Source: an uncultured bacterium (lineage in GTDB: Bacteria; Lernaellota; Lernaellaia; Lernaellales; Lernaellaceae). Taken from it: a stretch of 28,668 bases of DNA. Position numbers and translations under genes: made by a program. The notes under the pieces are model-generated. The model was not told where the DNA came from. It saw only the letters and a list, made by a program, of their open reading frames with translations, and searched no databases. The DNA lies in NCBI GenBank assembly GCA_964534375.1, contig CAZHPN010000064.1:1-28668 (forward strand). The letters are read 5' to 3'. Below, one piece after another: positions 1,357 through 22,982 of the stretch (positions are counted from its first letter, which is position 1; every line of letters begins with the position of its first letter).

Positions 1357-1968
1357 ATGACGATTGCGCAGAATCAACTGCACCAAGCGGCGTTGCGGCT
1401 CTTTGCGGAAAAAGGCGTGACGCAGGTAACCGTGAGCGATCTTGCCGAGGCGGCCGGCGTGGCGCGCGGCACGGTCTACAACAACTTCAAGAGCATTGAG
1501 TCGCTCTTTGAAGACGTGGCGACGCAACTGACCACCGAAATGAGTATGCGCATGGCCGCGATCCCGAACCAGTCAACCGATCCCGCGCGGCGGCTGGCTA
1601 ACGGCATTCGCGTTTTCGTGCGCCGCGCCCACGAGGACCCGCCGTGGGGCCGCTTCCTCGTCCGTTTCGGTTCCACCACGCCGACTCTGCGCGGGCTTCT
1701 CGAAGGGGCGCCGACGAGTGACCTGAAGTCGGGCCTCGAACTCGGCCGGTTCCATTTGCGCGCCGACCAGCTCGCGACCGCTGTCGCCGTGATGTCCGGC
1801 AGCGTGCTCGCCGCCATCATGCTCGTGCTGGAAGGTCACCGAACCTGGCGCGATGCGGGAGCCGACACGGCCGAGCTGTTTCTACGGGCGCTCGGTATTC
1901 CCCCTGACGAGGCAAGGTCTCTCGCGACGAGCGAATTGCCTCGCCTGCCAGTGGGCGGCGACGACTGA
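1357..1968 (+). CDS. TetR/AcrR family transcriptional regulator, divergent from ohyA
   Basis: N-terminal HTH: LHQAALRLFAEKGVTQVTVSDLAEAAGVARGTVYNNF. Start moved from TTG 1336 to ATG 1357. Confidence 0.9.
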   Translation: MTIAQNQLHQAALRLFAEKGVTQVTVSDLAEAAGVARGTVYNNFKSIESLFEDVATQLTTEMSMRMAAIPNQSTDPARRLANGIRVFVRRAHEDPPWGRFLVRFGSTTPTLRGLLEGAPTSDLKSGLELGRFHLRADQLATAVAVMSGSVLAAIMLVLEGHRTWRDAGADTAELFLRALGIPPDEARSLATSELPRLPVGGDD

Positions 1969-3188: not shown

Positions 3189-3317
3189 GGCCGATCGCTG
3201 CCGAAGGTTCGCGCCTGAACCGTTCACTGTTCACCGTTAGCCGACCAGCGGCCTTTCGCTGACGGCGGTTCGCGCCGGCACTGTTCACTGTTCATTGTTC
3301 ACTGTTAGCTGACCAGC
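3189..3317. repeat. Two tandem units (61 and 68 bp) containing CTGTTCA heptamers and the comM 3' end
   Basis: Unit pattern GGCC..TCGCTG.....GGTTCGCGCC....(CTGTTCA)n CYGTTAGCYGACCAGC; the units differ in length by one heptamer. Confidence 0.75.
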
Positions 3318-6227: not shown

Positions 6228-6311
6228 CGGGATTCGGGATTCGGGATTCGGGACTGGGGAGTGGGGATTGGGGATCGGGGCCGGAAATCCGCAATCCGCA
6301 ATCGGCAATCC
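6228..6311. repeat. Heptamer tandem array with inverted arms
   Basis: (CGGGATT)x3 CGGGACT GGGGAGT GGGGATT GGGGATC, then CGGAAAT CCGCAAT CCGCAAT CGGCAAT. Confidence 0.85.
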
Positions 6312-9649: not shown

Positions 9650-9773
9650 CCCGATGTCCGCCGGCCGCGGCCGTTGCAGCGCTGATCGAAATGGCTTTTT
9701 TTGACAGGATCACCAGAGCCCGCCCCCGCGAAGGCGGGTGATCAACGGGATCAGTTGTCGCGTCAGATGATCG

Positions 9774-9822
9774 CTGTTCGTTGTCCACTGTTCACGGTTC
9801 GCTGTTCCCTGTTCCCTGTTCG
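9774..9822. repeat. CTGTTCN heptamer array (7 units) overlapping the DUF2079 gene 3' end
   Basis: CTGTTCG TTGTCCA CTGTTCA CGGTTCG CTGTTCC CTGTTCC CTGTTCG. Confidence 0.85.
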
Positions 9823-11525
9823 CTGGCCGGTTCGCCCGGCGCGTCGCGCCGATAAATGATCAGGCGGTCGGTTTGATAAATCGGATGGTACGGCAGGCCG
9901 CAGACGATGTCTTCTTCGCTTTCCCAACCTTGTTGTTCCAAATTGATCGGGCACAGTTTTCGGTCGTAGATCACGTAGTCGATGTAATTCGCGAACTCGG
10001 GCAGGTGCCGAATGCTGTAAACATACCGTCGATTCAGCAGATGGTTCATGATGCAGTCGTTGGCGGCCACGCCGGCGTCGGGCGGGATCAGGCGCGGCAG
10101 CAGCGTTTGCAGCAACGCGACGTCCGGATCGGCCGGCGCGGCGTGCGCCCGCAGGTAATTGGCTTCGGGCTTGCCGTAGAAAAAGACGGTCGCCGCCAGG
10201 ATGGCGAGGGCCAGACGGCGTTGCGCGGCGGCGCGGTCAACACGGAGCCGTTTCGCCAGAAACTCCTCGGCGCGCGGCAGGGCGCAGATCGCGCCGTAAT
10301 AGAGAAAAGGGATAATTTCGGAAACGTAGTGATGGACATAGGACATTTTCTGATTGCCGGCGGGCAGAACGAGTTCGGCGAAAAGAAACAGGATCGGCGC
10401 GGCGGCCGGCGGATAGACGAGCGGCAGAAACAGCGCCGGCGCCAGCACGCGCCAACTGAAATCGGCGACGTGCACGTTGAAGATGCCGCCCCAAAAAGCC
10501 CGCGGCCGCAATAGCGGCGAGAGCAGGATTTGCCACGTCGTCGGCCCCAAATGGCTGTACAGGCTGGCGTAGGTGTATTTGTAGTGCAGCAGGTGCGGCA
10601 GCGCTTTGAACTCCAACACCGCGACGGCGGCGGCGAACGCGGCCAAGGTCCAACCCCATTTTCTGTTGCGCGAATCGCAGACGGCGAGCGCGACGCCGAA
10701 CGCGGCGAGAGTGAGGGGGACGGTTTCCTTGCACGTCATGGCGAGCAACGCAAAGCCGAAGAACGGCCAAAAGCGGCCGCGTTCGAGATAGAGCAGTGCG
10801 GCGAAAAGCAGCGGAATGACGAAGGCCAGCGCGTGGTAGTCGAAATTCATGATGCCGTGCAACGGCACGTACGCGAGATACGACAACGGCACGACCCAGC
10901 GGTAACCGGCGTAATCGGTCTTGGCCATCGCGAGTTTCAGGAGGATCAGCGCCGCGAACGGCAAGACGACATTCTGCGCGACGACCAGCGCCAGCGGGCT
11001 GCGAAAGAGCGCGACCAGCGGCAGAAACACGAAATAAAACGGCTCGACGTGATCGTGAAAGAGGTTGATGTTGGCCTTGATCGAACTGAAGTAAAACTTT
11101 CCGTGCAGTGTGTTCCACAGGCTTTGGTACGGAATCCCGATGTCCGAAATGTCGGCGTACCAGTTGAGGTAACGCTGCGCGCCGATGGCCGTCCAGAGCG
11201 CTGCGTAAACGAGCGCGAAACAGCCGACGAGCAACGCCGGCCGGCGCGCCGCGATCGCGGTCAATTTGTCGAAGCACGCGAGGAACAGGCGATTCCCGAG
11301 GCTCGATAGCACGAGGTCTTTGCCGCCCAGCAGCCGCGCCGCGACGAACAGCGCGAGGGAAACCGGAAAGACGTCTGCTAATATTCCGAAGCGGCGGCCG
11401 AAAATCGTCAACCAGCCGCAGACGAAAATCGCTGCCGCGAAGAGCAGCGACAAATCGCCGCACGCGAGTAAAATCCGCGCGGCGAAGGTGCGCGCCGCGC
11501 TGTATTTTTGTTGCGGTAAAACCAA
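9792..11525 (-). CDS. DUF2079-family polytopic membrane protein (GT-C-like glycosyltransferase candidate)
   Basis: DIGIPYQSLWNTLHG, HDHVEP, LVVAQ, FDYHAL, CKE, YSHLG, HY motifs, and an IPPDAGVAA C-terminal domain; multiple transmembrane segments. Confidence 0.75.
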   Translation of the reverse strand: MVLPQQKYSAARTFAARILLACGDLSLLFAAAIFVCGWLTIFGRRFGILADVFPVSLALFVAARLLGGKDLVLSSLGNRLFLACFDKLTAIAARRPALLVGCFALVYAALWTAIGAQRYLNWYADISDIGIPYQSLWNTLHGKFYFSSIKANINLFHDHVEPFYFVFLPLVALFRSPLALVVAQNVVLPFAALILLKLAMAKTDYAGYRWVVPLSYLAYVPLHGIMNFDYHALAFVIPLLFAALLYLERGRFWPFFGFALLAMTCKETVPLTLAAFGVALAVCDSRNRKWGWTLAAFAAAVAVLEFKALPHLLHYKYTYASLYSHLGPTTWQILLSPLLRPRAFWGGIFNVHVADFSWRVLAPALFLPLVYPPAAAPILFLFAELVLPAGNQKMSYVHHYVSEIIPFLYYGAICALPRAEEFLAKRLRVDRAAAQRRLALAILAATVFFYGKPEANYLRAHAAPADPDVALLQTLLPRLIPPDAGVAANDCIMNHLLNRRYVYSIRHLPEFANYIDYVIYDRKLCPINLEQQGWESEEDIVCGLPYHPIYQTDRLIIYRRDAPGEPASEQGTGNSEP

Positions 11526-11613: not shown

Positions 11614-11655
11614 CCGTCAACTGTTCACTGTTCACTGCTCACTGTTCACTGCTCC
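11614..11655. repeat. CTGTTCA heptamer array (6 units)
   Basis: CCGTCAA CTGTTCA CTGTTCA CTGCTCA CTGTTCA CTGCTCC. Confidence 0.85.
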
Positions 11656-11680
11656 GGCCTTGCGCCCGGTCTCGCGATGT

Positions 11681-11710
11681 GAAAGTATACTGACCGGTCA
11701 GTCTAGTTTC
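11681..11710. promoter_or_regulatory. 30-bp palindromic operator over the heme-operon promoter
   Basis: GAAAGTATACTGACCGGTCAGTCTAGTTTC: perfect 14-bp core ACTGACCGGTCAGT and 13 of 15 pairs overall. It overlaps a -10-like TATACT (11686-11691) and abuts the RBS GGAGG. Confidence 0.75.
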
Positions 11711-11719
11711 GGAGGGCGC

Positions 11720-12541
11720 GTGCGCACGCTTTCAGAAATTCTCGGGTTCGTGGTCTTCGCGATGTACGGCGCTTCGAGCGCCGCGTATTTGCGTCATTTC
11801 TTTCAGCCGGACGCGGCCGTCGGCGCGTACAAGCGCACGCTGTTCCGCGCGACGCTGGCGCTCCACGCGGCATACCTCGCGGTCGGCTGGGCGGCAGCCG
11901 GCCACATGCCGCTCTACAACCGTTTCGCCATCCTTGCGGTCGTGGTGTTCGCCTATTCCTTAATCTATCTCGTCGTCGAAACGCGCACCGGCCAGGCCGA
12001 AGTCGGCGGGTTTATTCTCGCGCTGGCGACAATCTTCTTCGGCGTTTCGCTGTTCTCGTTCGGGCAGCCGGTCGAACTCGACGCCCGCTTCCAGGGTCCG
12101 ATGTTCGCCTTTCACATCTCGACGGTGATCCTGGCGTACTCGGCGCTGTTCCTTGGCTTTTTATTCGCCGGCCTTTATCTGCTGCTCTACTACGAAATCA
12201 AGGAACATCGCCTCGGGCGAATTTACCAGCGCCTGCCGCCTCTCGAATTGCTCGCGACGATGAGCAACCACGCCAACATTCTCGGCTTCGGTTTTTTGAC
12301 CGTCGGCATTGTCGCCGGCAGCCTGTGGGCCAAACAAGTTTGGGACCTTTATTTCGGCCTCGACCCGAAATTGATCGCTACGGCCGCCGTGTGGCTGATC
12401 TACGGCGCGGGCGTTTTGGCGGCGCGCCTGCCGGGCTGGTCGCGCAAACGCAGCGCCTATGTGTCGGTTCTCGGCTTCTTTACCCTCGTCTTTTCGTTCG
12501 TGCTGCTGCACTCCGTGGTCGTTTCGCAGCACAACTTCTGA
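11720..12541 (+). CDS. CcsA/HemX-like cytochrome c assembly family membrane protein
   Basis: About 8 transmembrane helices, conserved His (FHIS), RLPPLELL, degenerate WWD motif GSLWAKQVW...DPK, terminal HNF. GTG 11720 after GGAGG. Confidence 0.85.
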   Translation: MRTLSEILGFVVFAMYGASSAAYLRHFFQPDAAVGAYKRTLFRATLALHAAYLAVGWAAAGHMPLYNRFAILAVVVFAYSLIYLVVETRTGQAEVGGFILALATIFFGVSLFSFGQPVELDARFQGPMFAFHISTVILAYSALFLGFLFAGLYLLLYYEIKEHRLGRIYQRLPPLELLATMSNHANILGFGFLTVGIVAGSLWAKQVWDLYFGLDPKLIATAAVWLIYGAGVLAARLPGWSRKRSAYVSVLGFFTLVFSFVLLHSVVVSQHNF

Positions 12542-12549
12542 GGAACGCG

Positions 12550-13179
12550 ATGCCCCGCACGTATCCAGTGAATCTTCTGCTTGACGGCCGCAAGTGCGTG
12601 GTCGTCGGCGGCGGCGCAGTCGCGGCGCGCAAGGCCCGGTCGCTGTGCGACGCCGGCGGCCGCGTACTCGTCGTCGCGCCGGAGATCGACGACGACCTCG
12701 CCGCCATGGAGCGCGACGGGAGGCTGGCGATCGAACGCCGACCCTTCGCCGCGGCCGACCTAGCCGGGGCGTTCGTCGCCGTCGCCGCCACTGACGATCC
12801 GGCCGTCAACCGCGCCGCCTTTGCCGCGGCCCGCGCGGCCGGCGTGCTCGTCAACGTCGTCGATCGGCCCGAGATGTGCGACTTCTTCGTGCCGGCGTCG
12901 ATTGCGCGCGGCGAACTCCAAATTGCGATATCGACCGGCGGGACCGGCCCCGGCGCCGCGAAGATGATCCGCCGCGATTTGGAGTCGCGCCTGAGCGACG
13001 ATTACGCGGCGCTGGTCGAGATCGTCGCTGCATGCCGCGACGCGCTGTTTGTCAAGTTCCCCAAGAATCCGGCGCGCCGCCACGCGGCCATGCAGCGCGT
13101 CCTGGCGCTCGATTTGCTCGCGCTGATCCGGGCCGGCCGCGGGGCCGAGGCGCGGGCGGAGGCGCTGGCATGCATCTAG
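12550..13179 (+). CDS. Precorrin-2 dehydrogenase / sirohydrochlorin ferrochelatase (CysG N-terminal, SirC/Met8-like)
   Basis: YPVNLLLDGRKCVVVGGGAVAARK, ATDD, VNVVDRPEMCDFFVPA, IAISTGG. ATG 12550. Confidence 0.9.
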   Translation: MPRTYPVNLLLDGRKCVVVGGGAVAARKARSLCDAGGRVLVVAPEIDDDLAAMERDGRLAIERRPFAAADLAGAFVAVAATDDPAVNRAAFAAARAAGVLVNVVDRPEMCDFFVPASIARGELQIAISTGGTGPGAAKMIRRDLESRLSDDYAALVEIVAACRDALFVKFPKNPARRHAAMQRVLALDLLALIRAGRGAEARAEALACI

Positions 13180-14435
13180 CCTTGATCGGCGCGAATTATC
13201 GCAGCTCGTCGCTGAACATCCGCGAGTGCATGGCGATCGCGCCCGAGAAATTGGCCGGCGCCCTGGAGCGGCTGCGCCGGATCGACGGCGTCGAAGAGTG
13301 CCTGCTGCTTTCGACCTGCAATCGCACCGAGGCGGTCGTTTTTTTCGCGACAGGCGAGCTTGAGCCGGACCGCATCATTGCGTATTTGGCTCAGGAAAGC
13401 GGCCTCGACGAAGCGACGCTGCGCCCGGCCCTCTACGGGCACGTCAACGAGGCCGCGGTCGCACATTTGTTCGAGGTCGCGAGCGGCCTCGATTCGATGG
13501 TGCTTGGCGAAACGCAGATTCTCGGCCAGGTGAAAACCGCGTACTCCGCGGCGGTGGCGGCCGGCGCGACCGGGCCGCGGCTGAATCGGCTGATGCACAT
13601 TGCGTTTCGCGTCGCCAAGCGCATTCGCACGGAGACCGACATCGGCAAGGGCACGCTGTCGGTGAGCCAGGCGGCCTGCGATTTGGCGGCGAAGATTTTT
13701 TCCGATTTGCGCGCGCGCGCGGTGCTGCTGATCGGCGCCGGCGAGGTCGCGGAACTCGCCGCCCAGATTTTGCGCGAGCGCGGCGTGGCGCGGCTGACGA
13801 TCGCCAACCGCACGCGCGAACGGGCCGAGGCGCTGGCGGCGCAACTCGGCGGCGCCTCGATCGCGCCGTTCGAAAAGCTGCTCGACGCCGTGGCGCAGGC
13901 GGACATCGTCATCGCGAGCGTCGGCGCGCCGGAACCGATTTTGCGCACGGCCGACCTGCGGCCGCTGGTCGCGCGGCGGCGCAGCCCGCTGTTCATGATC
14001 GACCTCGCCGTGCCGCGCAACATCGAGCCCAGCGCGAACGATCTCGAAGGCGTGTTCGTTTACGACATCGACGAATTGGGCCGGCAGGTCGAGGCCAACC
14101 AGGCGCGGCGCGAGGCCGAGCGCGCCCGGTGCCGTGCAATGATCGAGGCGGGGACCGCGGCGTTTCGTGAGTGGTCGGCGCACTTCAAGGTTTCGCCGAC
14201 GATCAAGGAATTGCAGCAGCAACTGGAGGGCCTGCGGGCCGCGGAGATCGAGCGGCTGCGCGACAACCTTGAGCCCGCGCAATACGTGCTGGTCGAGGAC
14301 GCGACGCGCCGCTTGATGACGAAAATTCTGGCGCACCCGATTCTGCACGTGAAAGACGCGGCGAAAAGCGAGGACGCGGGCAAGGTCATCGCGTTCATTC
14401 GCGACATCCTCGGCCTGCACGGGGACGAACGATGA
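13170..14435 (+). CDS. hemA: Glutamyl-tRNA reductase
   Basis: LSTCNRTE, HLFEVASGLDSMVLGETQILGQVK, IGAGE, DLAVPRNIE. ATG 13170. Confidence 0.96.
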   Translation: MHLALIGANYRSSSLNIRECMAIAPEKLAGALERLRRIDGVEECLLLSTCNRTEAVVFFATGELEPDRIIAYLAQESGLDEATLRPALYGHVNEAAVAHLFEVASGLDSMVLGETQILGQVKTAYSAAVAAGATGPRLNRLMHIAFRVAKRIRTETDIGKGTLSVSQAACDLAAKIFSDLRARAVLLIGAGEVAELAAQILRERGVARLTIANRTRERAEALAAQLGGASIAPFEKLLDAVAQADIVIASVGAPEPILRTADLRPLVARRRSPLFMIDLAVPRNIEPSANDLEGVFVYDIDELGRQVEANQARREAERARCRAMIEAGTAAFREWSAHFKVSPTIKELQQQLEGLRAAEIERLRDNLEPAQYVLVEDATRRLMTKILAHPILHVKDAAKSEDAGKVIAFIRDILGLHGDER

Positions 14436-15379
14436 GCGGCGCGATTCGCCTCGGCACGCGCGGCAGCAAACTCGCCCTGTGGCAAACGAATTTCGTCGCC
14501 GCAGAACTGCGCAAACGCCATCCGGATTTGCAAGTCGAATTGCGCATCATTACGACCGCCGGCGACAAGCTCGCCGATCGCGCGCTGACGAAGATCGACG
14601 ACCAGGGCCTGTTCACCAAGGAAATCGAAAAGGCGCTGCTGGCGGGCGAGATCGACGCCGCAGTGCACAGCTTAAAGGATTTGCCGACGATTATCCCCGC
14701 GGGCCTGCGCCTCGGCGCGGTGCTTCCGCGCAACGATCCGCGTGATGCTCTCGTGGCGCGCGCGGCCGGCTCGCTGAAGGAATTGCCTGATGGGGCGCGT
14801 GTCGGCACAGGCAGCCCGCGGCGCGCGGCGCAACTGTTGGCGCTGCGGCCCGATCTGCAATGCGTCGGCATCCGCGGCAACGTCGACACGCGGCTGCGCA
14901 AGCTCGACGAAAGCCGCGATTACGACGCGATCGTCATGGCCGCCGCGGGGCTCGCACGCCTTGGTTTGAGCGGCCGCGTCGCCGAATTTTTCCCCAGCGC
15001 GCAGATGCTGCCCGCGCCGGGGCAGGGCGCGATGGCGGCCGAGTGCCGCGACGGCGACGACGCCACGCTCGCGCTCGTCGCGCCGCTCAACGACGCCGAC
15101 ACGGAAATTGCCGTGCGCGCCGAACGGGAATTCTTGCGCGTTCTCGAAGGCGGCTGCCGCGTGCCGATCGGCGCTTTCGGCGAAATCGACGGCGGCACGC
15201 TGCGCCTTGCGGGCGTCGTCGCGGCGCTCGACGGCCGGCGGTTGCTGCGGCAAAGCGGCGCCGGACCGAAGGCCGATCCGGAGCGCGTCGGCGCGGAACT
15301 CGCCGCGGCCGTGCGGCGCGCCGACGCGGACGGCCTGCTGGCGGAAATTTTCGCCCGCGCGCGCGAGGGTTTCGCATGA
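14432..15379 (+). CDS. hemC: Hydroxymethylbilane synthase (porphobilinogen deaminase)
   Basis: GTRGSKLALWQ, GLFTKEIE, AVHSLKDLP, RGNVDTRLRKL, LEGGCRVPIG. Confidence 0.97.
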   Translation: MSGAIRLGTRGSKLALWQTNFVAAELRKRHPDLQVELRIITTAGDKLADRALTKIDDQGLFTKEIEKALLAGEIDAAVHSLKDLPTIIPAGLRLGAVLPRNDPRDALVARAAGSLKELPDGARVGTGSPRRAAQLLALRPDLQCVGIRGNVDTRLRKLDESRDYDAIVMAAAGLARLGLSGRVAEFFPSAQMLPAPGQGAMAAECRDGDDATLALVAPLNDADTEIAVRAEREFLRVLEGGCRVPIGAFGEIDGGTLRLAGVVAALDGRRLLRQSGAGPKADPERVGAELAAAVRRADADGLLAEIFARAREGFA

Positions 15380-15942
15380 CCGGCAAAGACGCCCGGCGCG
15401 AACAAATCCTCACGGCGGCGATCCGCCTCTTCGCCGAGCGCGAATATCACAATGTCCAAATGGACGAAATCGCGGTGAGCGCCGCGGTCGCCAAGGGCAC
15501 GCTCTACAACCATTTTCACTCGAAGGACGCGCTGTACTTCGAGGCGATCCGCTCGCGCCTCGACCGGCTGATCGGCCTGTTGCAGCAGGCGTATCCGGGC
15601 CGCCGCGAGCCGTGGCGCAACCTGCGCAGCTTCCTGCTGCACTGGCAGGCGTTCATGGTGCGCGAGGCGCAATTTTTCTGCCTGTGGCGCGAGGCGCTGT
15701 GCCGCAATCACCGCCCCGAAATCGTGGAAATGCACGAACGGCTGCGGGCGATCTTGCGCGAGATTCTCGAACAGGGCGTCAAGGCGCGGGCCTTTCGCCG
15801 CGTCGATCCGGACGACACGGCGACGATGATTCTCGGCCTGCTCGATCATCGCGCGGCGGCGCTGATCAAGGCGGGCCGGTCGGGCCGCGACCCGGCGCCG
15901 ATTCTCGATTTGCTCCGCCGCGGGCTGGAGGTCGCGAAATGA
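15376..15942 (+). CDS. TetR/AcrR family regulator embedded in the heme operon
   Basis: ATG 15376 overlaps the hemC stop; RREQILTAAIRLFAEREYHNVQMDEIAVSAAVAKGTLYNHFHSKDAL HTH; its stop overlaps the cobA start. Confidence 0.9.
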   Translation: MTGKDARREQILTAAIRLFAEREYHNVQMDEIAVSAAVAKGTLYNHFHSKDALYFEAIRSRLDRLIGLLQQAYPGRREPWRNLRSFLLHWQAFMVREAQFFCLWREALCRNHRPEIVEMHERLRAILREILEQGVKARAFRRVDPDDTATMILGLLDHRAAALIKAGRSGRDPAPILDLLRRGLEVAK

Positions 15943-17465
15943 CGCCGACGGGAAGCGTGTGGCTGGTGGGCGCGGGGCCGGGCGATCCGGGCCTGTTCAC
16001 GTTGCGCGGCCGCGAGTTGCTCGGGCGGGCCGCGGCGGTCGTGTTCGATCACCTGGCGAACCCGTCGCTGCTGGATTTCGCCGCGCCGGGCGCCGAACTG
16101 ATTTACGTCGGCAAGCAGGCCGGGCGGCATTCGCTCAAGCAAGACGAAATCAACGAACTGCTGGTGCGCCTCGCGGGCGAGGGCAAAAACGTTTGCCGCC
16201 TGAAGGGCGGCGATCCGTTCATCTTCGGGCGCGGCGGCGAGGAAGCGCTGGCGCTCGCCGAGCACGGCGTGCCGTTCGAAATCGTGCCGGGCATCAGCGC
16301 CGCGAGCGCCGTGCCGGCCTACGCGGGCGTGCCGGTCACGCATCGCGGCTTCGCGGCCTGCTTCGGCGCGGTCACCGGCCACGAGGACCCGACCAAGGAA
16401 ACGTCCGACCTCGATTGGCCCTCGCTCGCCGCGTGGCAGGGCACGCTCGTGTTTTTCATGGGCGTGAAAAATCTCGCGGAAAATCTGGGGCAATTGATCG
16501 CGCACGGCCTCGCGCCGGACACCCCGGCGGCGCTCATCCGCAACGGCACGCTGCCGAGCCAGCGCACCATCGTCGGCGCGGCGAGCGATCTGGCGGCGAA
16601 GGCCGCGGCGGCCGGTTTCGCGCCGCCCGCGCTGCTCGTCGTGGGCAAGGTTGTGGCCCTGCGCGACCGCATCAACTGGTTCGAAACGCGGCCGCTCTTC
16701 GGCCGCAAGGTGGTCGTGACTCGCGCGCGCCAGCAGGCGAGCGAGATGTCGGCGCGGCTCGCCGCGCTGGGCGCGGACGTGATCGAAATGCCGGCCATCC
16801 GCATTGCGCCGCCGGCGGACGCGGCGCCGCTCGACGCCGCCGCGGCGCGGCTGGCGAGCTACGACTGGGTCGTGCTGACCAGCGTCAACGGCGTCGATGC
16901 GCTGTTCGCGGCGATGGGGCGCGCGGGCAAAGACGCGCGGTCGTTCGGCGCGGCGCGCGTGTGCGCGATTGGGCCAGCGACCGCCGAGCGGCTGGCGCTG
17001 CATGGCATTTGCGCGGACCTCGTGCCCGAAAAATTCGTCGCCGAAGAACTGCTCGCGGAATTGCTGCGCCGCAACGAAGCGGCGGGCAAAAAGTTCCTGC
17101 TGGCCCGCGCCGATATCGCCCGGCCGATGCTGCGCGACGAACTGCAAAAGGCCGGCGCAACGGTTGAGGAAGTCGAGGCGTACCGCACCCTCGCCGAAGC
17201 GCCCGACCCGGCGCGGCGCGACGACGCGGCCGGCGCCGAAATTGTGACATTCGCCAGTTCCGGCGCCGTTCGCAATTTCGCCGCGGCCCTGGGGCCCGAG
17301 CGCCTGGCGCGGCTGCGCGAACGCGCGCGCCTCGTCTCGATCGGCCCCGTCACCTCGCAAACGATGAACGAACTCGGCCTGCCGGTCGCCGCCGAAGCGG
17401 CGCGGAGCACGATCCCCGCGTTGGTCGACGCGGTCGTCAACACAGCCAAGGAAATGCAACGATGA
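15939..17465 (+). CDS. cobA: Fused uroporphyrinogen-III C-methyltransferase / uroporphyrinogen-III synthase (CobA-HemD)
   Basis: VWLVGAGPGDPGL, RLKGGDPFIFGRGGEE, VPVTHR; then PLFGRKVVVTRAR, LTSVNGV, AIGPATA, TFASS, SIGPVTS. Confidence 0.95.
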   Translation: MTPTGSVWLVGAGPGDPGLFTLRGRELLGRAAAVVFDHLANPSLLDFAAPGAELIYVGKQAGRHSLKQDEINELLVRLAGEGKNVCRLKGGDPFIFGRGGEEALALAEHGVPFEIVPGISAASAVPAYAGVPVTHRGFAACFGAVTGHEDPTKETSDLDWPSLAAWQGTLVFFMGVKNLAENLGQLIAHGLAPDTPAALIRNGTLPSQRTIVGAASDLAAKAAAAGFAPPALLVVGKVVALRDRINWFETRPLFGRKVVVTRARQQASEMSARLAALGADVIEMPAIRIAPPADAAPLDAAAARLASYDWVVLTSVNGVDALFAAMGRAGKDARSFGAARVCAIGPATAERLALHGICADLVPEKFVAEELLAELLRRNEAAGKKFLLARADIARPMLRDELQKAGATVEEVEAYRTLAEAPDPARRDDAAGAEIVTFASSGAVRNFAAALGPERLARLRERARLVSIGPVTSQTMNELGLPVAAEAARSTIPALVDAVVNTAKEMQR

Positions 17466-18658
17466 TCGGCATCAGCAAACTTTATTGCGGAACGGTGGAG
17501 CCCTCGGACGCGCTGCGCTACGGCCGGCGCGCGAAGGATTTGCCGTCGCACCTGCTGCAATTTTCGGCGGACAAAAAACCCGTCGTCGTCTGGAATTGCA
17601 CGCGCCGCTGCAACCTGCGCTGCGTGCACTGCTATAGCCAAAGCGAAGACCGCGACTACGAGGACGAACTGACCACGGCCGAGGCGCGTACGATGATCGA
17701 CGACCTCGCCGCGTTCGGCGCGCCGGTGCTGCTTTTTTCCGGCGGCGAGCCAACGGTGCGCAAGGATTTGCTCGAACTCGTGCGCTACGCGGTGGGCAAA
17801 GGACTGCGCGCGGTCATCTCGACGAACGGCACGCTGATCGACGATGCAAAGGCCGCGGCGTTTGCGGAAATCGGGTTGTCCTATGTCGGCATCAGCCTCG
17901 ACGGCCTGCGCGAAGTGCACGACAAATTCCGCGGCATGCCGGGCGCGTACGATCGCGCACTGCGGGGCCTCAACGCCTCGCGCAACGCCGGGTTGAAAGT
18001 CGGGCTGCGCTTCACGATCAACCGCCGCAACGTCGGCGAGATTCCGGCGATCTTCGATCTGGTCGAGCAGGAAAAAGTGCCGCGCATCTGCTTCTATCAT
18101 TTAGTGTACAGCGGCCGCGGCAGCGCGCTGATCGAGGAAGATTTGGATCACGCGGGCGCGCGCGAGGTGGTCAACCTGATCATCGACCGCACGCAGCGCC
18201 TGCACAACCAGGGCAATCCGGTGGAAGTGCTGACCGTCGACAACCATGCCGACGGCGTTTTCCTTTATCAGCGCCTGCAACGCGAGAATCCGGTGCGGGC
18301 CGCGCAGGTGCTGGAACTGCTGCAATTCAACGAGGGCAACAGCAGCGGCGCGGGCATCGGCTGCGTTTCGTGGAACGGCGACGTGCACCCCGATCAGTTC
18401 TGGCGGCAGCGGGTGCTCGGCAATGTGCGGCGGCAGCCGTTCTCGCGCATCTGGACCGATCCCGACAACGAATTTCTCATGAAACTCAAGCAAAAAGGCC
18501 GCTTCGTGACGGGCCGCTGCGGCAAGTGCCGCTGGCTCGCGATCTGCGGCGGCAACTTTCGCGCGCGCGCCGAGGCGGCGACCGGCGACATCTGGGCGCC
18601 CGACCCGGCGTGCTATCTGACCGACGCGGAAATCGGCCTGGAAGAAAAAGATGGATGA
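17462..18658 (+). CDS. ahbC: 12,18-didecarboxysiroheme deacetylase, radical SAM (NirJ1-like)
   Basis: MIGISKLYCGTVEPSDALRYGR N-terminus, CNLRCVHC, TVDNHADG, VHPDQF, C-terminal SPASM cysteines. Confidence 0.93.
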   Translation: MIGISKLYCGTVEPSDALRYGRRAKDLPSHLLQFSADKKPVVVWNCTRRCNLRCVHCYSQSEDRDYEDELTTAEARTMIDDLAAFGAPVLLFSGGEPTVRKDLLELVRYAVGKGLRAVISTNGTLIDDAKAAAFAEIGLSYVGISLDGLREVHDKFRGMPGAYDRALRGLNASRNAGLKVGLRFTINRRNVGEIPAIFDLVEQEKVPRICFYHLVYSGRGSALIEEDLDHAGAREVVNLIIDRTQRLHNQGNPVEVLTVDNHADGVFLYQRLQRENPVRAAQVLELLQFNEGNSSGAGIGCVSWNGDVHPDQFWRQRVLGNVRRQPFSRIWTDPDNEFLMKLKQKGRFVTGRCGKCRWLAICGGNFRARAEAATGDIWAPDPACYLTDAEIGLEEKDG

Positions 18659-19097
18659 TCTCGACGCCCGCTTGCTGGCGATGATTCAGCGCGATTTTCC
18701 GCTGGAGCCGCGGCCGTTCGCCGTGCTCGCCGAGCGGCTGGGCGCCAGCGAACCCGAGATCATGGCGCGTCTCGCGGCCCTGCGCGAAGGCAAAATCATT
18801 CGCGGCATTCGGGCAATGTTCGAGGCACGGCAGCTCGGTTACGTGAGCGCGCTGGCGGCGGCGACGGTTGACCGCGAGCGGTTCGACGAAGTGGCGGCGA
18901 ATATCAATATTCTGCCGGGCGTCACCCACAATTACGAACGCGACCACGAGTACAATTTGTGGTTCACGCTGATCGCCCGCGACGAGCCGACGTTGCGCGC
19001 GCAACTGGCGCGGATCGCGGCGTTGCCGGGCGTGCGCGATTTGCAGACATTGCCCGCCGAAAAAACCTATAAGTTGCGCGTGGAGTTTTCGGCATGA
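18651..19097 (+). CDS. ahbA: Siroheme decarboxylase alpha subunit (Lrp/AsnC-like)
   Basis: IQRDFPLEPRPF, LGYVSAL, PGVTHNYERDHEYNLWFT. Confidence 0.92.
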   Translation: MDDLDARLLAMIQRDFPLEPRPFAVLAERLGASEPEIMARLAALREGKIIRGIRAMFEARQLGYVSALAAATVDRERFDEVAANINILPGVTHNYERDHEYNLWFTLIARDEPTLRAQLARIAALPGVRDLQTLPAEKTYKLRVEFSA

Positions 19098-19597
19098 ATG
19101 TGGACCAACGCGTCATCCGCGCCGTGCGGGCGTTGCAATGCGATCTGCCGCTGGTCGAGCGGCCGTTTGCAGCGCTCGCGGCCGAGCACGGTTTGACGGA
19201 AGACGAGCTGCTGGCGATTGCGCGGCGGCTGAAAGAAGAAAAGACGATTCGCCGTTACGGCGCGGCCGTCAGCCATCACCGGCTCGGCTACGCGGCGAAC
19301 GGCATGTCGGTCTGGCGCGTTCCGGCCGAGCGGCTCGACGAGGTCGGGGCGGCGCTTGCCGCGCGCGCCGAGGTCAGCCACTGTTATGCGCGGCCGACGT
19401 TTCCGGGGTTTCCGTACAACTTGTACGCGATGATTCACAGCAAGGACCGCGCGGCGGTCGAGGCGGTCGCGGCGCAGGCCGCGGCGGCCACGGGCGTCGC
19501 CGAATATCACATTTTGTACTCGGTTCGCGAATTGAAAAAATCAAGCATGCGCTATTTTACGGAGGACGAAAATGCCGTTTCCGATCCATCGGCCTAG
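19094..19597 (+). CDS. ahbB: Siroheme decarboxylase beta subunit
   Basis: [51 protein letters not shown]. Confidence 0.92.
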
Positions 19598-20546
19598 GCG
19601 ATTGCGCCGCACCGACGCCGTGCGCCGCCTCGTGCGCGAGACTTCGCTGGCGCCCGACGATTTCATTCTGCCGCTGTTCGTGCGGCCCGGAAAAGACACG
19701 GCGGAGCCGGTCACGTCGATGCCCGGCGTGTGCCGCTTGTCGGTCGATCGCCTCGTCGCCAAGTGCCGCGACGCGGCGCACATGGGCCTCGGCGGCGTCA
19801 TCCTGTTCGGCCTGCCCGAAACGAAAGACGCGAGGGGCACGAGCGGCTACGCGCCCGACGGCATCGTGCAGACGGCGATCCGCGCAATCAAAGATGCGAC
19901 GCCGGACCTGGTCGTCGTCACCGACGTATGCCTCTGCGAATACACCGATCACGGCCACTGCGGCGTCATCAAAAACGGCGGGGTAGACAACGACGCGACG
20001 CTGCCGCTGCTCGCCGAAATGGCGCTGTCGCACGCGCGCGCCGGGGCCGACATGGTCGCGCCGTCGGACATGATGGACGGCCGCGTCGGGACGATCCGCG
20101 ACGCGCTCGACGACGACGGCTTCGACGATTTGCCGATCATGGCCTACTCGGCGAAATACGCGTCGGGTTTCTACGGGCCGTTCCGCGAGGCCGCCGACTC
20201 GGCGCCGTCGTTCGGCGACCGCCGCTCGTATCAGATGGACCCGGCGAATGTCCGCGAGGCCCTGCACGAAATCGAACTGGACCTCGAAGAGGGCGCCGAT
20301 ATCGTGATGGTCAAGCCGGCGCTGGCGTATCTCGACGTGATCCGCGCCGCGCGCGAGGTCTTCGACGCGCCGCTGGCCGCGTACAACGTCAGCGGCGAAT
20401 ACGCGATGGTCAAAGCGGCCGGGTCGATGGGCTGGATCGACGAGCCGCGCGTGATGATGGAAATTCTCTTCGCCATCAAGCGCGCCGGGGCCGATATTAT
20501 ATTGACGTACTTCGCCGAAGCCGCCGCGGCGTTGCTGGCGCCGTGA
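19572..20546 (+). CDS. hemB: Porphobilinogen synthase (Zn-type ALA dehydratase)
   Basis: [51 protein letters not shown]. Confidence 0.97.
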
Positions 20547-20556
20547 AAGGACGCGC

Positions 20557-21621
20557 ATGCGCGAACATCTGCCGCGCCTGATCGCCTGGGAAACGACCCG
20601 CTCGTGCCTGCTCAACTGCCGGCACTGCCGCGCCGCCGCGACGAGCGCGAAATATCCCAACGAACTGACGACCGAGCAGGGCCGCAAGCTGCTGGAGAGC
20701 ATCCGCACGCTCGGCCAATCAATTGTGATATTGACCGGCGGCGAGCCGATGCTGCGCGAAGACATCTACGATCTGGCGCGCTACGGCTCCGATCTCGGCC
20801 TGCGGATGGTCATGGCGCCCTGCGGCGCGATGGTTACCGCCGAAGCCGCCAAGCGCCTGCTGGCCGCGGGCATTCAGCGGATCAGCCTGAGCCTCGACGG
20901 GCCCGACGCGCCGACACACGACGGCCTGCGCAACGTGCCCGGCTCGTTCGAACAGGCGCTGGCGGCGGCGCGCATCGCGCGGGAAGCGGGCCTGAAATTT
21001 CAGATCAATACAACGGTAAGCAAGCTCAATTTCGCGATGCTGCCGCAAATTCTCGCCCTCGCGGCCGAGCTTGGCGCCGAGGCGTTTCACCCGTTCTTGC
21101 TGGTGCCGACGGGTCGCGGCAAAGAGATGGCCGATCTCGAATTGCCGCCCGAGGAATACGAGCGCGCGCTGCACTGGATTTACGAGCAACGCGGCGTTGC
21201 GCCGTTGGTGTTCAAGCCGACCTGCGCGCCGCATTACTACCGCATTTTGCGGCAGCGCGAGCATGCGGCGGGCCGCGCCGTGCGGCCCGAAACGCACGGC
21301 CTCGATGCGATGACCAAAGGCTGCCTGGGCGGGCAGGGGTTCGCGTTCGTCAGCCACGTCGGCAAGGTGCAAATCTGCGGCTTTCTCGACGAAGAGGCGG
21401 GCGATTTGCAGACGAACGGCATGGATTTCGCGGCGATCTGGCGCGATTCGCCGCTGTTCGCGAAAATGCGCGACCAGGGCGCCTACAAAGGCCGTTGCGG
21501 CGTTTGCGAATATCACAATGTTTGCGGCGGCTGCCGCGCGCGGGCGTTTGCGATGACGGGAGACTTTATGGCCGAAGAACCTTTTTGCGTTTATCAGCCG
21601 CGTGAACGCGAGGGCGAGTAG
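20557..21621 (+). CDS. ahbD: AdoMet-dependent heme b synthase, radical SAM (NirJ2-like)
   Basis: [63 protein letters not shown]. Confidence 0.9.
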
Positions 21622-21658
21622 TCAGTAGTCCGAAGCCAGAAGCCGCAAGCCAGAAGTC
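21617..21658. repeat. Heptamer array between ahbD and hemL
   Basis: AGTAGTC AGTAGTC CGAAGCC AGAAGCC GCAAGCC AGAAGTC. Confidence 0.75.
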
Positions 21659-21686
21659 GGGGGAAAAGCAATTACGGGGGAAGTTT

Positions 21687-22982
21687 ATGAATAATGAACG
21701 CAGCCACGAATTATTTGCCCGCGCCCAGCGGACCCTGGTCGGCGGCGTCAACTCGCCCGTGCGCGCATTTCGGTCGGTCGGCGGCAACCCGGTGTACATG
21801 ACGGCCGGCGAGGGCGCGTGGATGACCGACGCGGACGGCAATCGCTATCTCGATTACGTCGGCTCGTGGGGCCCGCTGATCGTCGGCCATTCGCACCCGG
21901 CCGTGGTCGCGGCGCTGCACGAGGCGATCGCGCGCGGGACCAGCTTCGGCACGTGCAGCGCGCCCGAGGTCGAACTGGCGGAAAAGGTCAAAGAATTTTT
22001 CCCGTCGCTCGAAAAAATCCGCTTCGTCAACTCGGGCACCGAGGCGACGATGGGCGCGATCCGCCTGGCGCGCGGCGCGACCGGTTGCGACAAAATCGTC
22101 AAATTCGCGGGCTGCTATCACGGCCACGGCGACGCGTTTCTGGTGAAGGCCGGCAGCGGCGCGCTGACCTTCGGGGCGCCGGACAGCGCGGGCGTGCCGG
22201 CCAGCGTCGCGCAGGAAACGCTCACCGCGCGGTTCAACGATTTGCCGAATGTCGCCGAATTGTTCGACAACAACGCCGGCCGTATCGCCGCCGTGATCGT
22301 CGAGCCGGTCGTCGGCAACATGGGCGTTGTGCCGCCGGCGCCGGACTTTCTCGCGGGCCTGCGGCAATTGTGCGACGCGCACGGCGCGCTGCTGATTTTC
22401 GACGAAGTGATGACGGGCTTCCGCGTCGCGCGCGGCGGCGCGCAGGCGCTTTACGGCGTGCGGCCCGACCTGACGACGCTCGGCAAAATCATCGGCGGCG
22501 GCCTGCCCGTCGGCGCGTTCGGCGGGCTCGCGAAAATCATGGACCTGCTCAGCCCGCTCGGGCCCGTCTACCAGGCCGGCACGCTCTCGGGCAACCCGCT
22601 CGCAATGGCTGCCGGCCTGGCGACGCTCAAGCTGTTGACGCCTGATCTCTACGCGGCGCTCGAAGCGAAATCCGCGCGCCTCGCCGACGGTCTGGCCCGC
22701 GCCGCCGCGGCGGCCGGCGTCGCCGCGCAGGTCAATCGCGTCGGCTCGATGTTGACGCTGTTCTTCACCGACCGCGCGGTCACCGATCTCGAATCGGCCC
22801 AAACGACCGACACGAAACGCTTCGCGGCGTTTTTCCGGGAGATGCTCGACGCCGGCGTTTACCTGCCGCCGTCGAATTATGAGGCGTGGTTCGTCAGCGC
22901 CGCGCATTCGGATGACGATATCGAGGTGACGATTCGGGCGGCGGAAAGGGCGTTGCGCGGGGTTTATCAAGCCCAGTTGTAG
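21687..22982 (+). CDS. hemL: Glutamate-1-semialdehyde 2,1-aminomutase
   Basis: [55 protein letters not shown]. Confidence 0.97.

Follow-up and report, generated by a model that had tools for sequence, protein, structure and literature searches.

What does a transcriptional regulator of the TetR family do in the middle of an operon for haem synthesis, and which DNA does it read? The question is raised by a stretch of 28,668 nt from an uncultured bacterium of the Lernaellota lineage (the window: contig CAZHPN010000064.1 of assembly GCA_964534375.1), in which twelve genes on the forward strand (11720–22982), with gaps or overlaps of at most 65 nt, span the full route from glutamyl-tRNA to haem b via the siroheme branch. 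Gene assignments were made by Pfam and NCBIfam profile searches. Among the twelve is a gene for a TetR-family regulator of 188 amino acids (15376–15942, + strand), with matches to TetR_N (PF00440, 1.2e-16, residues 11–56) and TetR_C_24 (3.8e-9). Comparative sequence analysis makes it likely that this protein serves as a dedicated repressor of the haem operon, or more precisely of the trunk of tetrapyrrole synthesis, and that it regulates its own expression. It very probably docks on a palindrome in the operon's promoter. The window corresponds to contig C64 in a genome of 6.3 Mb, 64% G+C and 381 contigs, designated G000; compared genomes are labelled G, loci L and contigs of G000 C, each with a number. 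The sequencing runs containing this DNA carry wetland or peat metagenome labels, and none of them is registered as an RNA run.

The TetR gene lies between hemC (porphobilinogen deaminase, 14432–15379, + strand, PF01379, 6.9e-83) and cobA-hemD, a fused uroporphyrinogen-III methyltransferase and synthase (15939–17465, + strand, PF00590, PF02602). The ATGA coupling to both neighbors in the original prediction is borne out by overlaps at 15376–15379 and 15939–15942. The TetR stop codon (15940–15942) overlaps the cobA-hemD start, which makes this an unfused form with no covalent HemD fusion. The first gene of the operon encodes a hemX/CcsB-like membrane protein (11720–12541, + strand; PF01578, 4.9e-29; TIGR03144 below cutoff) with a GTG start and a GGAGG at 11711–11715. 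Just ahead of this GGAGG, ending 17 nt 5' of the GTG, is an exact 14-bp palindrome, ACTGACCGGTCAGT (11689–11702), the candidate site for a dimer of the embedded TetR and the window's sole match to this sequence at up to two mismatches (0.05 expected). It forms the core of a wider, imperfect palindrome of 30 bp (11681–11710) in which 13 of 15 positions pair. A putative promoter on the + strand (11660–11691), read by eye, would consist of TTGCGC (11660–11665), a 17-nt spacer ending in TGA, and either AAGTAT (11683–11688) or the alternative –10 element TATACT (11686–11691), which overlaps the palindrome core. This geometry matches that of clearer promoters at L155, C100, G008, and L179, where a good TTGAC(A/T) –35 and a –10 element are followed, about 3 nt on, by the box, which would therefore cover the transcription start.

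If the palindrome is the operator of the embedded TetR, the two should occur together. We defined the box as ACTGAC-NN-GTCAGT with at most one mismatch in the 12 half-site positions. Of the 16 TetR-bearing haem operons with an available leader, 13 have it ahead of the hemX-like gene. The identical 14-mer ACTGACCGGTCAGT is present in the window and L155, ACCGACCAGTCAGT in G008 and G031, ACTGGCTGGTCAGT in L087, and ACTGACCAGTCAGT in eight Ignavibacteria loci. By chance, a 300-nt leader would contain such a box with a probability of about 4–6e-4. No box was found in 94,219 bases of TetR-less controls (seq. from seven haem loci of the same phylum and five other control loci), and a degenerate consensus had no match on the hemC contigs of 12 TetR-less genomes. 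A Fisher test of 13/16 against 0/7 gives p = 4.9e-4, in which related genomes are counted though they are not independent. Across the other leaders, conservation is limited to the 14-bp core of the 30-bp palindrome. The co-occurrence of motif and TetR across genomes, proposed earlier as a check, is thus found, and the proposal of an operator through which the TetR would autoregulate its operon gains good support from comparison, in the synteny described below as well as in the box counts.

A palindrome in a leader can also form a short hairpin in the RNA, so that this one might act at the RNA level or be a chance match rather than a protein operator. The evidence makes this highly improbable. 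The predicted fold of the leader RNA is no better than that of shuffled sequences (z = –0.8; 42 of 200 shuffles fold as well), and the leader matches no Rfam family. The box is conserved as sequence, not as pairing potential, across lineages of very different G+C. In addition, G000 contains four exact ACTGACNNGTCAGT sites against 0.23 expected, all of them in promoter regions: one in the haem leader, one on contig C100, and two before the TetR gene of contig C328.

The position of the TetR gene is as constant as the box. A close relative directly follows hemC in all 17 further loci bearing one. The closest named relative is from Candidatus Alcyoniella australis, of the phylum Candidatus Lernaellota. 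In a survey of 17 genomes of this phylum, hemC was found in 14, and both the TetR and the hemX-like gene only in G000 and G008, which have an identical twelve-gene order. Seven TetR-less genomes have sirC-hemA-hemC-cobA-hemD(-hemB-hemL) or parts thereof, with cobA or hemD directly 3' of hemC where both are present. Two of 10 genomes from another small phylum (G031 and G291) contain hemX-hemA-hemC-tetR-hemD-hemB-hemL and no ahb genes. In a metagenome scan, the six best TetR matches (L082–L087) and two partial ones (L093 and L155) all either lie between hemC and cobA or follow hemC at the end of a contig. The hemX-like gene comes first in all 16 operons with an available leader; in G291 it is the outermost gene and its leader is cut off by the contig end. 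A single-protein search of genome contigs returned distant TetRs only, and a protein atlas generic TetR clusters. The original prediction had tied the regulator specifically to the siroheme-dependent (Ahb) route. This tie is not supported, since the same TetR and box are found without ahb genes in G031 and in the Ignavibacteria operons, and the same TetR in the ahb-less operon of G291. The presence of the TetR in ahb-less operons of several lineages implies that it belongs to the trunk, hemX-hemA-hemC-hemD, and not to the Ahb branch.

Operons of the hemX/tetR/ahb type are patchily distributed, with only G000 and G008 among the 17 phylum genomes having hemX and the TetR. The hemC product of the window is 34–38% identical to those of same-family genomes (G001–G007) and 48–54% identical to those of another family. 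Patchiness and hemC identities together suggest transfer or replacement of the whole operon. The hemC matches in G010 (C83:4054-4983) and G011 (C27:13819-14748), loci L069 and L070, have one in-frame TGA each.

The nearest TetR family, after the few unfused orthologues, is fused to the enzyme encoded next door. An all-against-all HMMER comparison grouped only four representatives at E ≤ 1e-30. Of 13 longer relatives tested, 11 are composed of TetR_N, TetR_C_24, and HEM4, i.e. TetR::HemD, and come from Ignavibacteria assemblies; the fusion is present in 11 of 151 sampled Ignavibacteria genomes. All 11 loci read hemX-hemA-hemC-tetR::hemD, one continuing with hemE and hemN, so that, like the operon of the window, they start with the hemX-like gene and have the TetR in the slot after hemC; 8 of the 11 leaders also carry the box, as ACTGACCAGTCAGT. 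In contrast to these, the TetR of the window is a separate protein coupled to cobA-hemD, in an operon that follows the Ahb route and not hemE/hemN. In a maximum-likelihood tree the fused forms make up two separate, well-supported (starred) clades nested among unfused forms, several of which (P0002, P0004–P0019) were compared at the level of the protein only. A precedent for the fused relatives is NnaR of actinobacteria, which joins a HemD-like domain to a DNA-binding domain; according to PMC6277429 its output domain is of the OmpR type, it acts in nitrate/nitrite assimilation, and its HemD domain is reported to be inactive. Unlike the haem-operon regulator, NnaR is not a TetR and is not encoded in a haem operon.

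The AlphaFold2 model of the window's TetR (predicted local distance difference test score, pLDDT, 92.9) has the all-helical two-domain fold of the family, with nine helices, and every Foldseek row shown is a TetR-family regulator. The best solved relatives by profile are FadR/YsiA of Bacillus, a FadR-like protein of Clostridium, and PfmR (TTHB023) of Thermus thermophilus (PDB entries 1vi0, 3whb, 5gpa, and 3vpr), with E-values from 2.6e-28, for 1vi0 over 191 profile positions, to 4.5e-25. By fold, the best solved relatives have template modelling (TM) scores of 0.79–0.84, with 3whb at 0.84 and a root-mean-square deviation of 2.1. As would suit a conserved box, 31 family members show little or no variation at residues K40, G41, T42, Y44, F47, S49, and K50 of the helix-turn-helix. 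The palindromic boxes of these relatives lie over the transcription start, with mapped +1 sites inside those of PfmR, and the TGAC/GTCA half-site found here recurs in the PfmR consensus as well as in the SbtR box, TGACYrnnyRGTCA (PMC7022988). The likeness has limits, as identity is only 20–27%, half-site spacing differs, and FadR and PfmR act on fatty-acid and phenylacetate targets with acyl-CoA ligands, whereas the operon here makes tetrapyrroles. A second TetR-like match in the window (1369–1665) is 35% identical to residues 8–110 of the haem TetR.

A palindromic operator at the promoter of a regulator's own operon is a feature of the TetR family, and comparison of the loci points to one here. 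A TetR repressor acting on a promoter palindrome with autoregulation is a textbook class of mechanism, and we propose that the haem operon is controlled in this way. The twelve genes, from the hemX-like gene to hemL, would most likely form one transcript starting at about 11690–11700. A TetR dimer would bind the 14-bp palindrome, which overlaps the putative –10 element and transcription start, and block initiation. Since tetR is translationally coupled inside the operon, the level of repressor would track operon output, resulting in negative autoregulation. The set point would be shifted by a metabolite, most likely a compound of the pathway, that binds within the C-terminal domain.

Several observations weigh against the TetR being a dedicated repressor of this kind. 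In three leaders of TetR-bearing operons (L171, L172, and L173) the box was not found, the best fits having three to four mismatches. A sigma-70 consensus scanner called no promoter at the window's box at its threshold; the original prediction had placed the 30-bp palindrome on a –10-like box and leader, and the palindrome with its exact core stands, with the –10 element as a reading by eye. The box is common to a wider FadR/PfmR-like clade of TetRs and not private to the haem TetR, and two further TetR operons of G000, on C100/C136 and C328, have it too, so that another paralogue could occupy the haem box. Finally, TetR ligands usually release the repressor, which would make haem an illogical inducer of its own synthesis. 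As to the three leaders, L171 and L172 share a looser motif, TGACTA(c/a)(t/c)CGGTC, about 60–70 nt 5' of hemX, possibly an operator that has diverged and has its half-sites further apart.

How far does the box extend beyond haem operons? Exact ACTGACNNGTCAGT is present in 11 non-haem metagenome TetR loci, which were chosen for encoding more distant TetRs (24–33% identity), mostly right before their own TetR gene or operon. Within G000, the site at C100:3054-3067, 17 nt before a start codon, looked at first like another target of the haem TetR, given the gene for a HemL-like aminotransferase downstream of the box. It was rejected as such, since a TetR of its own belongs to this operon: contigs C100 and C136 are linked by an FGGY kinase gene split between them, and the joined operon (C100:1-3070, L027; C136:1-2010, L199) comprises a class II aldolase, the HemL-like class III aminotransferase, the FGGY kinase, and, at its end, a TetR (C136:1378-2010). 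The aminotransferase scores below the hemL cutoffs, and a divergent gene for a haloacid dehalogenase (HAD) hydrolase lies beside the operon. Metagenome locus L130 mirrors this arrangement, with box, aminotransferase (74% identical), FGGY kinase, aldolase II, and TetR, and no box accompanies the aminotransferase in five TetR-less relatives. On C328 (C328:2085-2845, L195), a TTGACG –35 is followed by two perfect 20-bp palindromes with the sequence TAGACTGACGCGTCAGTCTA or nearly so, spaced by 21 nt, and then by the gene for a TetR of 228 amino acids; the palindromes have the half-sites of the haem box and a GC centre. Three paralogous TetR operons of G000 thus share one type of box, and cross-regulation is possible. 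Because the box is shared among paralogues, motif matches alone cannot define a regulon; in this clade of TetRs motif searches on their own will over-assign regulons, an error that was nearly made with C100. Near-matches on C48 and C4 were rejected as targets because they lie inside coding frames, and sites on C42 because they have a different half-site and precede a TolC-like gene. The C42 sites (C42:8437-8482; L003, 1469–1514) are two palindromes of the TTACTnnCCGGnnAGTAA type that follow a TTGACA and precede this TolC-like outer-membrane gene, and are probably the operator of an efflux TetR.

With three such operons in one genome, the haem box might be read mainly by the TetR of C136 or C328, the embedded TetR acting elsewhere or having lost DNA binding. 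In favor of this idea, the same 14-mer heads the C136 operon, and the TetR gene of C328 is preceded by two palindromes built from those half-sites. We nevertheless regard it as improbable. Across at least five lineages the box goes with the embedded TetR, and loci lacking that TetR lack the box as well. No orthologue of the C328 TetR was found at E ≤ 1e-15 in G031, G239, and G184, all of which bear the haem box, and the embedded TetR retains every invariant helix-turn-helix residue.

If the embedded TetR is the repressor of the haem operon, what would it sense? The signal could be either a precursor or intermediate that induces the operon or an end product that makes the repressor bind more tightly, a mode of action uncommon in the family, for which DesT and FabR are precedents. 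Feedback by the end product is the simplest way to control a biosynthetic operon. The original prediction listed H89, C102, C109, H112, H120, and H158 in the ligand-binding domain and suggested that the protein may sense haem, siroheme, or another intermediate. In a haem sensor of the type of HrtR (Lactococcus lactis) and FhtR (Enterococcus faecalis), these residues would bind haem, which would then be the co-repressor. All six residues are indeed present, and H89 lies in helix 79–96 of the AlphaFold2 model, a putative pocket helix, and is conserved in 28 of 31 members, unfused and fused. The other five are not conserved, which argues against the His/Cys idea as a whole. HrtR and FhtR show that TetRs can bind haem and resemble the system here as TetR repressors of haem homeostasis with 14-nt promoter palindromes, HrtR likewise being encoded within the operon it controls (PMC7858072). 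They differ in controlling hrtBA haem efflux in organisms that take up haem, and in being released by haem, the opposite of what end-product repression needs (same source). No hrtBA is present here, the neighbors of the TetR being biosynthetic only in the profile searches. Kinship to HrtR is not supported either: HrtR is absent from the top 60 of the 223 PDB sequence matches and from the Foldseek rows displayed, and the nearest solved relatives, FadR/YsiA and PfmR, bind acyl-CoA. We therefore think a haem sensor of the HrtR/FhtR type unlikely.

The repeated fusion to HemD may point to the hemC/hemD step. The TetR always adjoins hemD, has been fused to HemD at least twice, and has the conserved H89 in the modelled pocket helix, which leaves room for a tentative and rather doubtful proposal: the TetR might be a flux sensor of this step, reading hydroxymethylbilane, uroporphyrinogen III, or a close derivative through its own pocket or through contact with HemD. 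The unfused form would then be a non-covalent pair of repressor and enzyme, and the Ignavibacteria fusion the same device in one chain. If true, several phyla would share a transcriptional switch for tetrapyrrole synthesis that is coupled to an enzyme. The series of split and fused HemD forms is a natural experiment on how an enzyme and a regulator become one protein.

To our knowledge, the control of haem synthesis outside model Firmicutes, Actinobacteria, and Proteobacteria is almost unknown. We regard the TetR of the window as the unfused form, in a new phylum (Candidatus Lernaellota), of a subfamily of haem-trunk TetRs that the papers searched do not describe. Its predicted role as a dedicated repressor goes together with a defined 14-bp box, conserved between Candidatus Lernaellota and Ignavibacteria, in siroheme and classical routes alike. 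A repressor with a defined and widely conserved box offers a directly testable transcriptional switch for the trunk of the pathway. Known regulators of haem genes tabulated in PMC10991733 include HemX, HrrSA, DtxR, PerR, SpxA1, and others. Of these, PerR acting on hemAXCDBL, HrrSA, and the control of GtrR by HemX resemble the present case in concerning an early haem operon with a HemX-like protein, and differ from it in being Fur-like, two-component, and membrane-protein regulators, respectively (same source). By word count, 'TetR' as a whole word does not appear in the reviews PMC10991733, PMC13564367, and PMC7242693, and a literature search, with supplements outside its scope, returned nothing relevant on TetRs in haem or tetrapyrrole operons among the papers listed.

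The remaining genes of the operon are all on the + strand. Between the hemX-like gene and hemC are a sirC-like gene for the N-terminal module of precorrin-2 dehydrogenase/sirohydrochlorin ferrochelatase (12550–13179; PF13241, PF14824) and hemA, glutamyl-tRNA reductase (13176–14435; PF05201, PF01488, PF00745). After cobA-hemD come ahbC, 12,18-didecarboxysiroheme deacetylase (17462–18658; TIGR04546, 704.6 bits, cutoff 650), ahbA-like and ahbB-like siroheme decarboxylase subunits (18651–19097 and 19094–19597; both PF22451 and PF17805), hemB, porphobilinogen synthase (19572–20546; PF00490, 3.1e-151), and an ahbD-like radical S-adenosylmethionine (SAM) haem b synthase (20557–21621; TIGR04545, 488 bits, just under the cutoff of 500). 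The last gene of the cluster is hemL, glutamate-1-semialdehyde aminomutase (21687–22982; TIGR00713, 616 bits, cutoff 527). Upstream of the operon, a divergent gene on the – strand (9792–11525) encodes a DUF2079 membrane protein.

Heptamer tandem repeats are present in the window at 11620–11654, 3279–3306, 6228–6311, and 9771–9825 (ACTGTTC, CGGGATT, AATCCGC, and TCGCTGT). The array at 11620–11654 was rejected as a promoter-specific feature, since Tandem Repeats Finder (TRF) gives 593 period-7 arrays genome-wide. Period 7 is the commonest TRF period in the 6.3-Mb genome, with CGGGATT, AAGGAAA, and CAGTGAA among the recurring units, and the heptamer arrays that were inspected are intergenic and near promoters.

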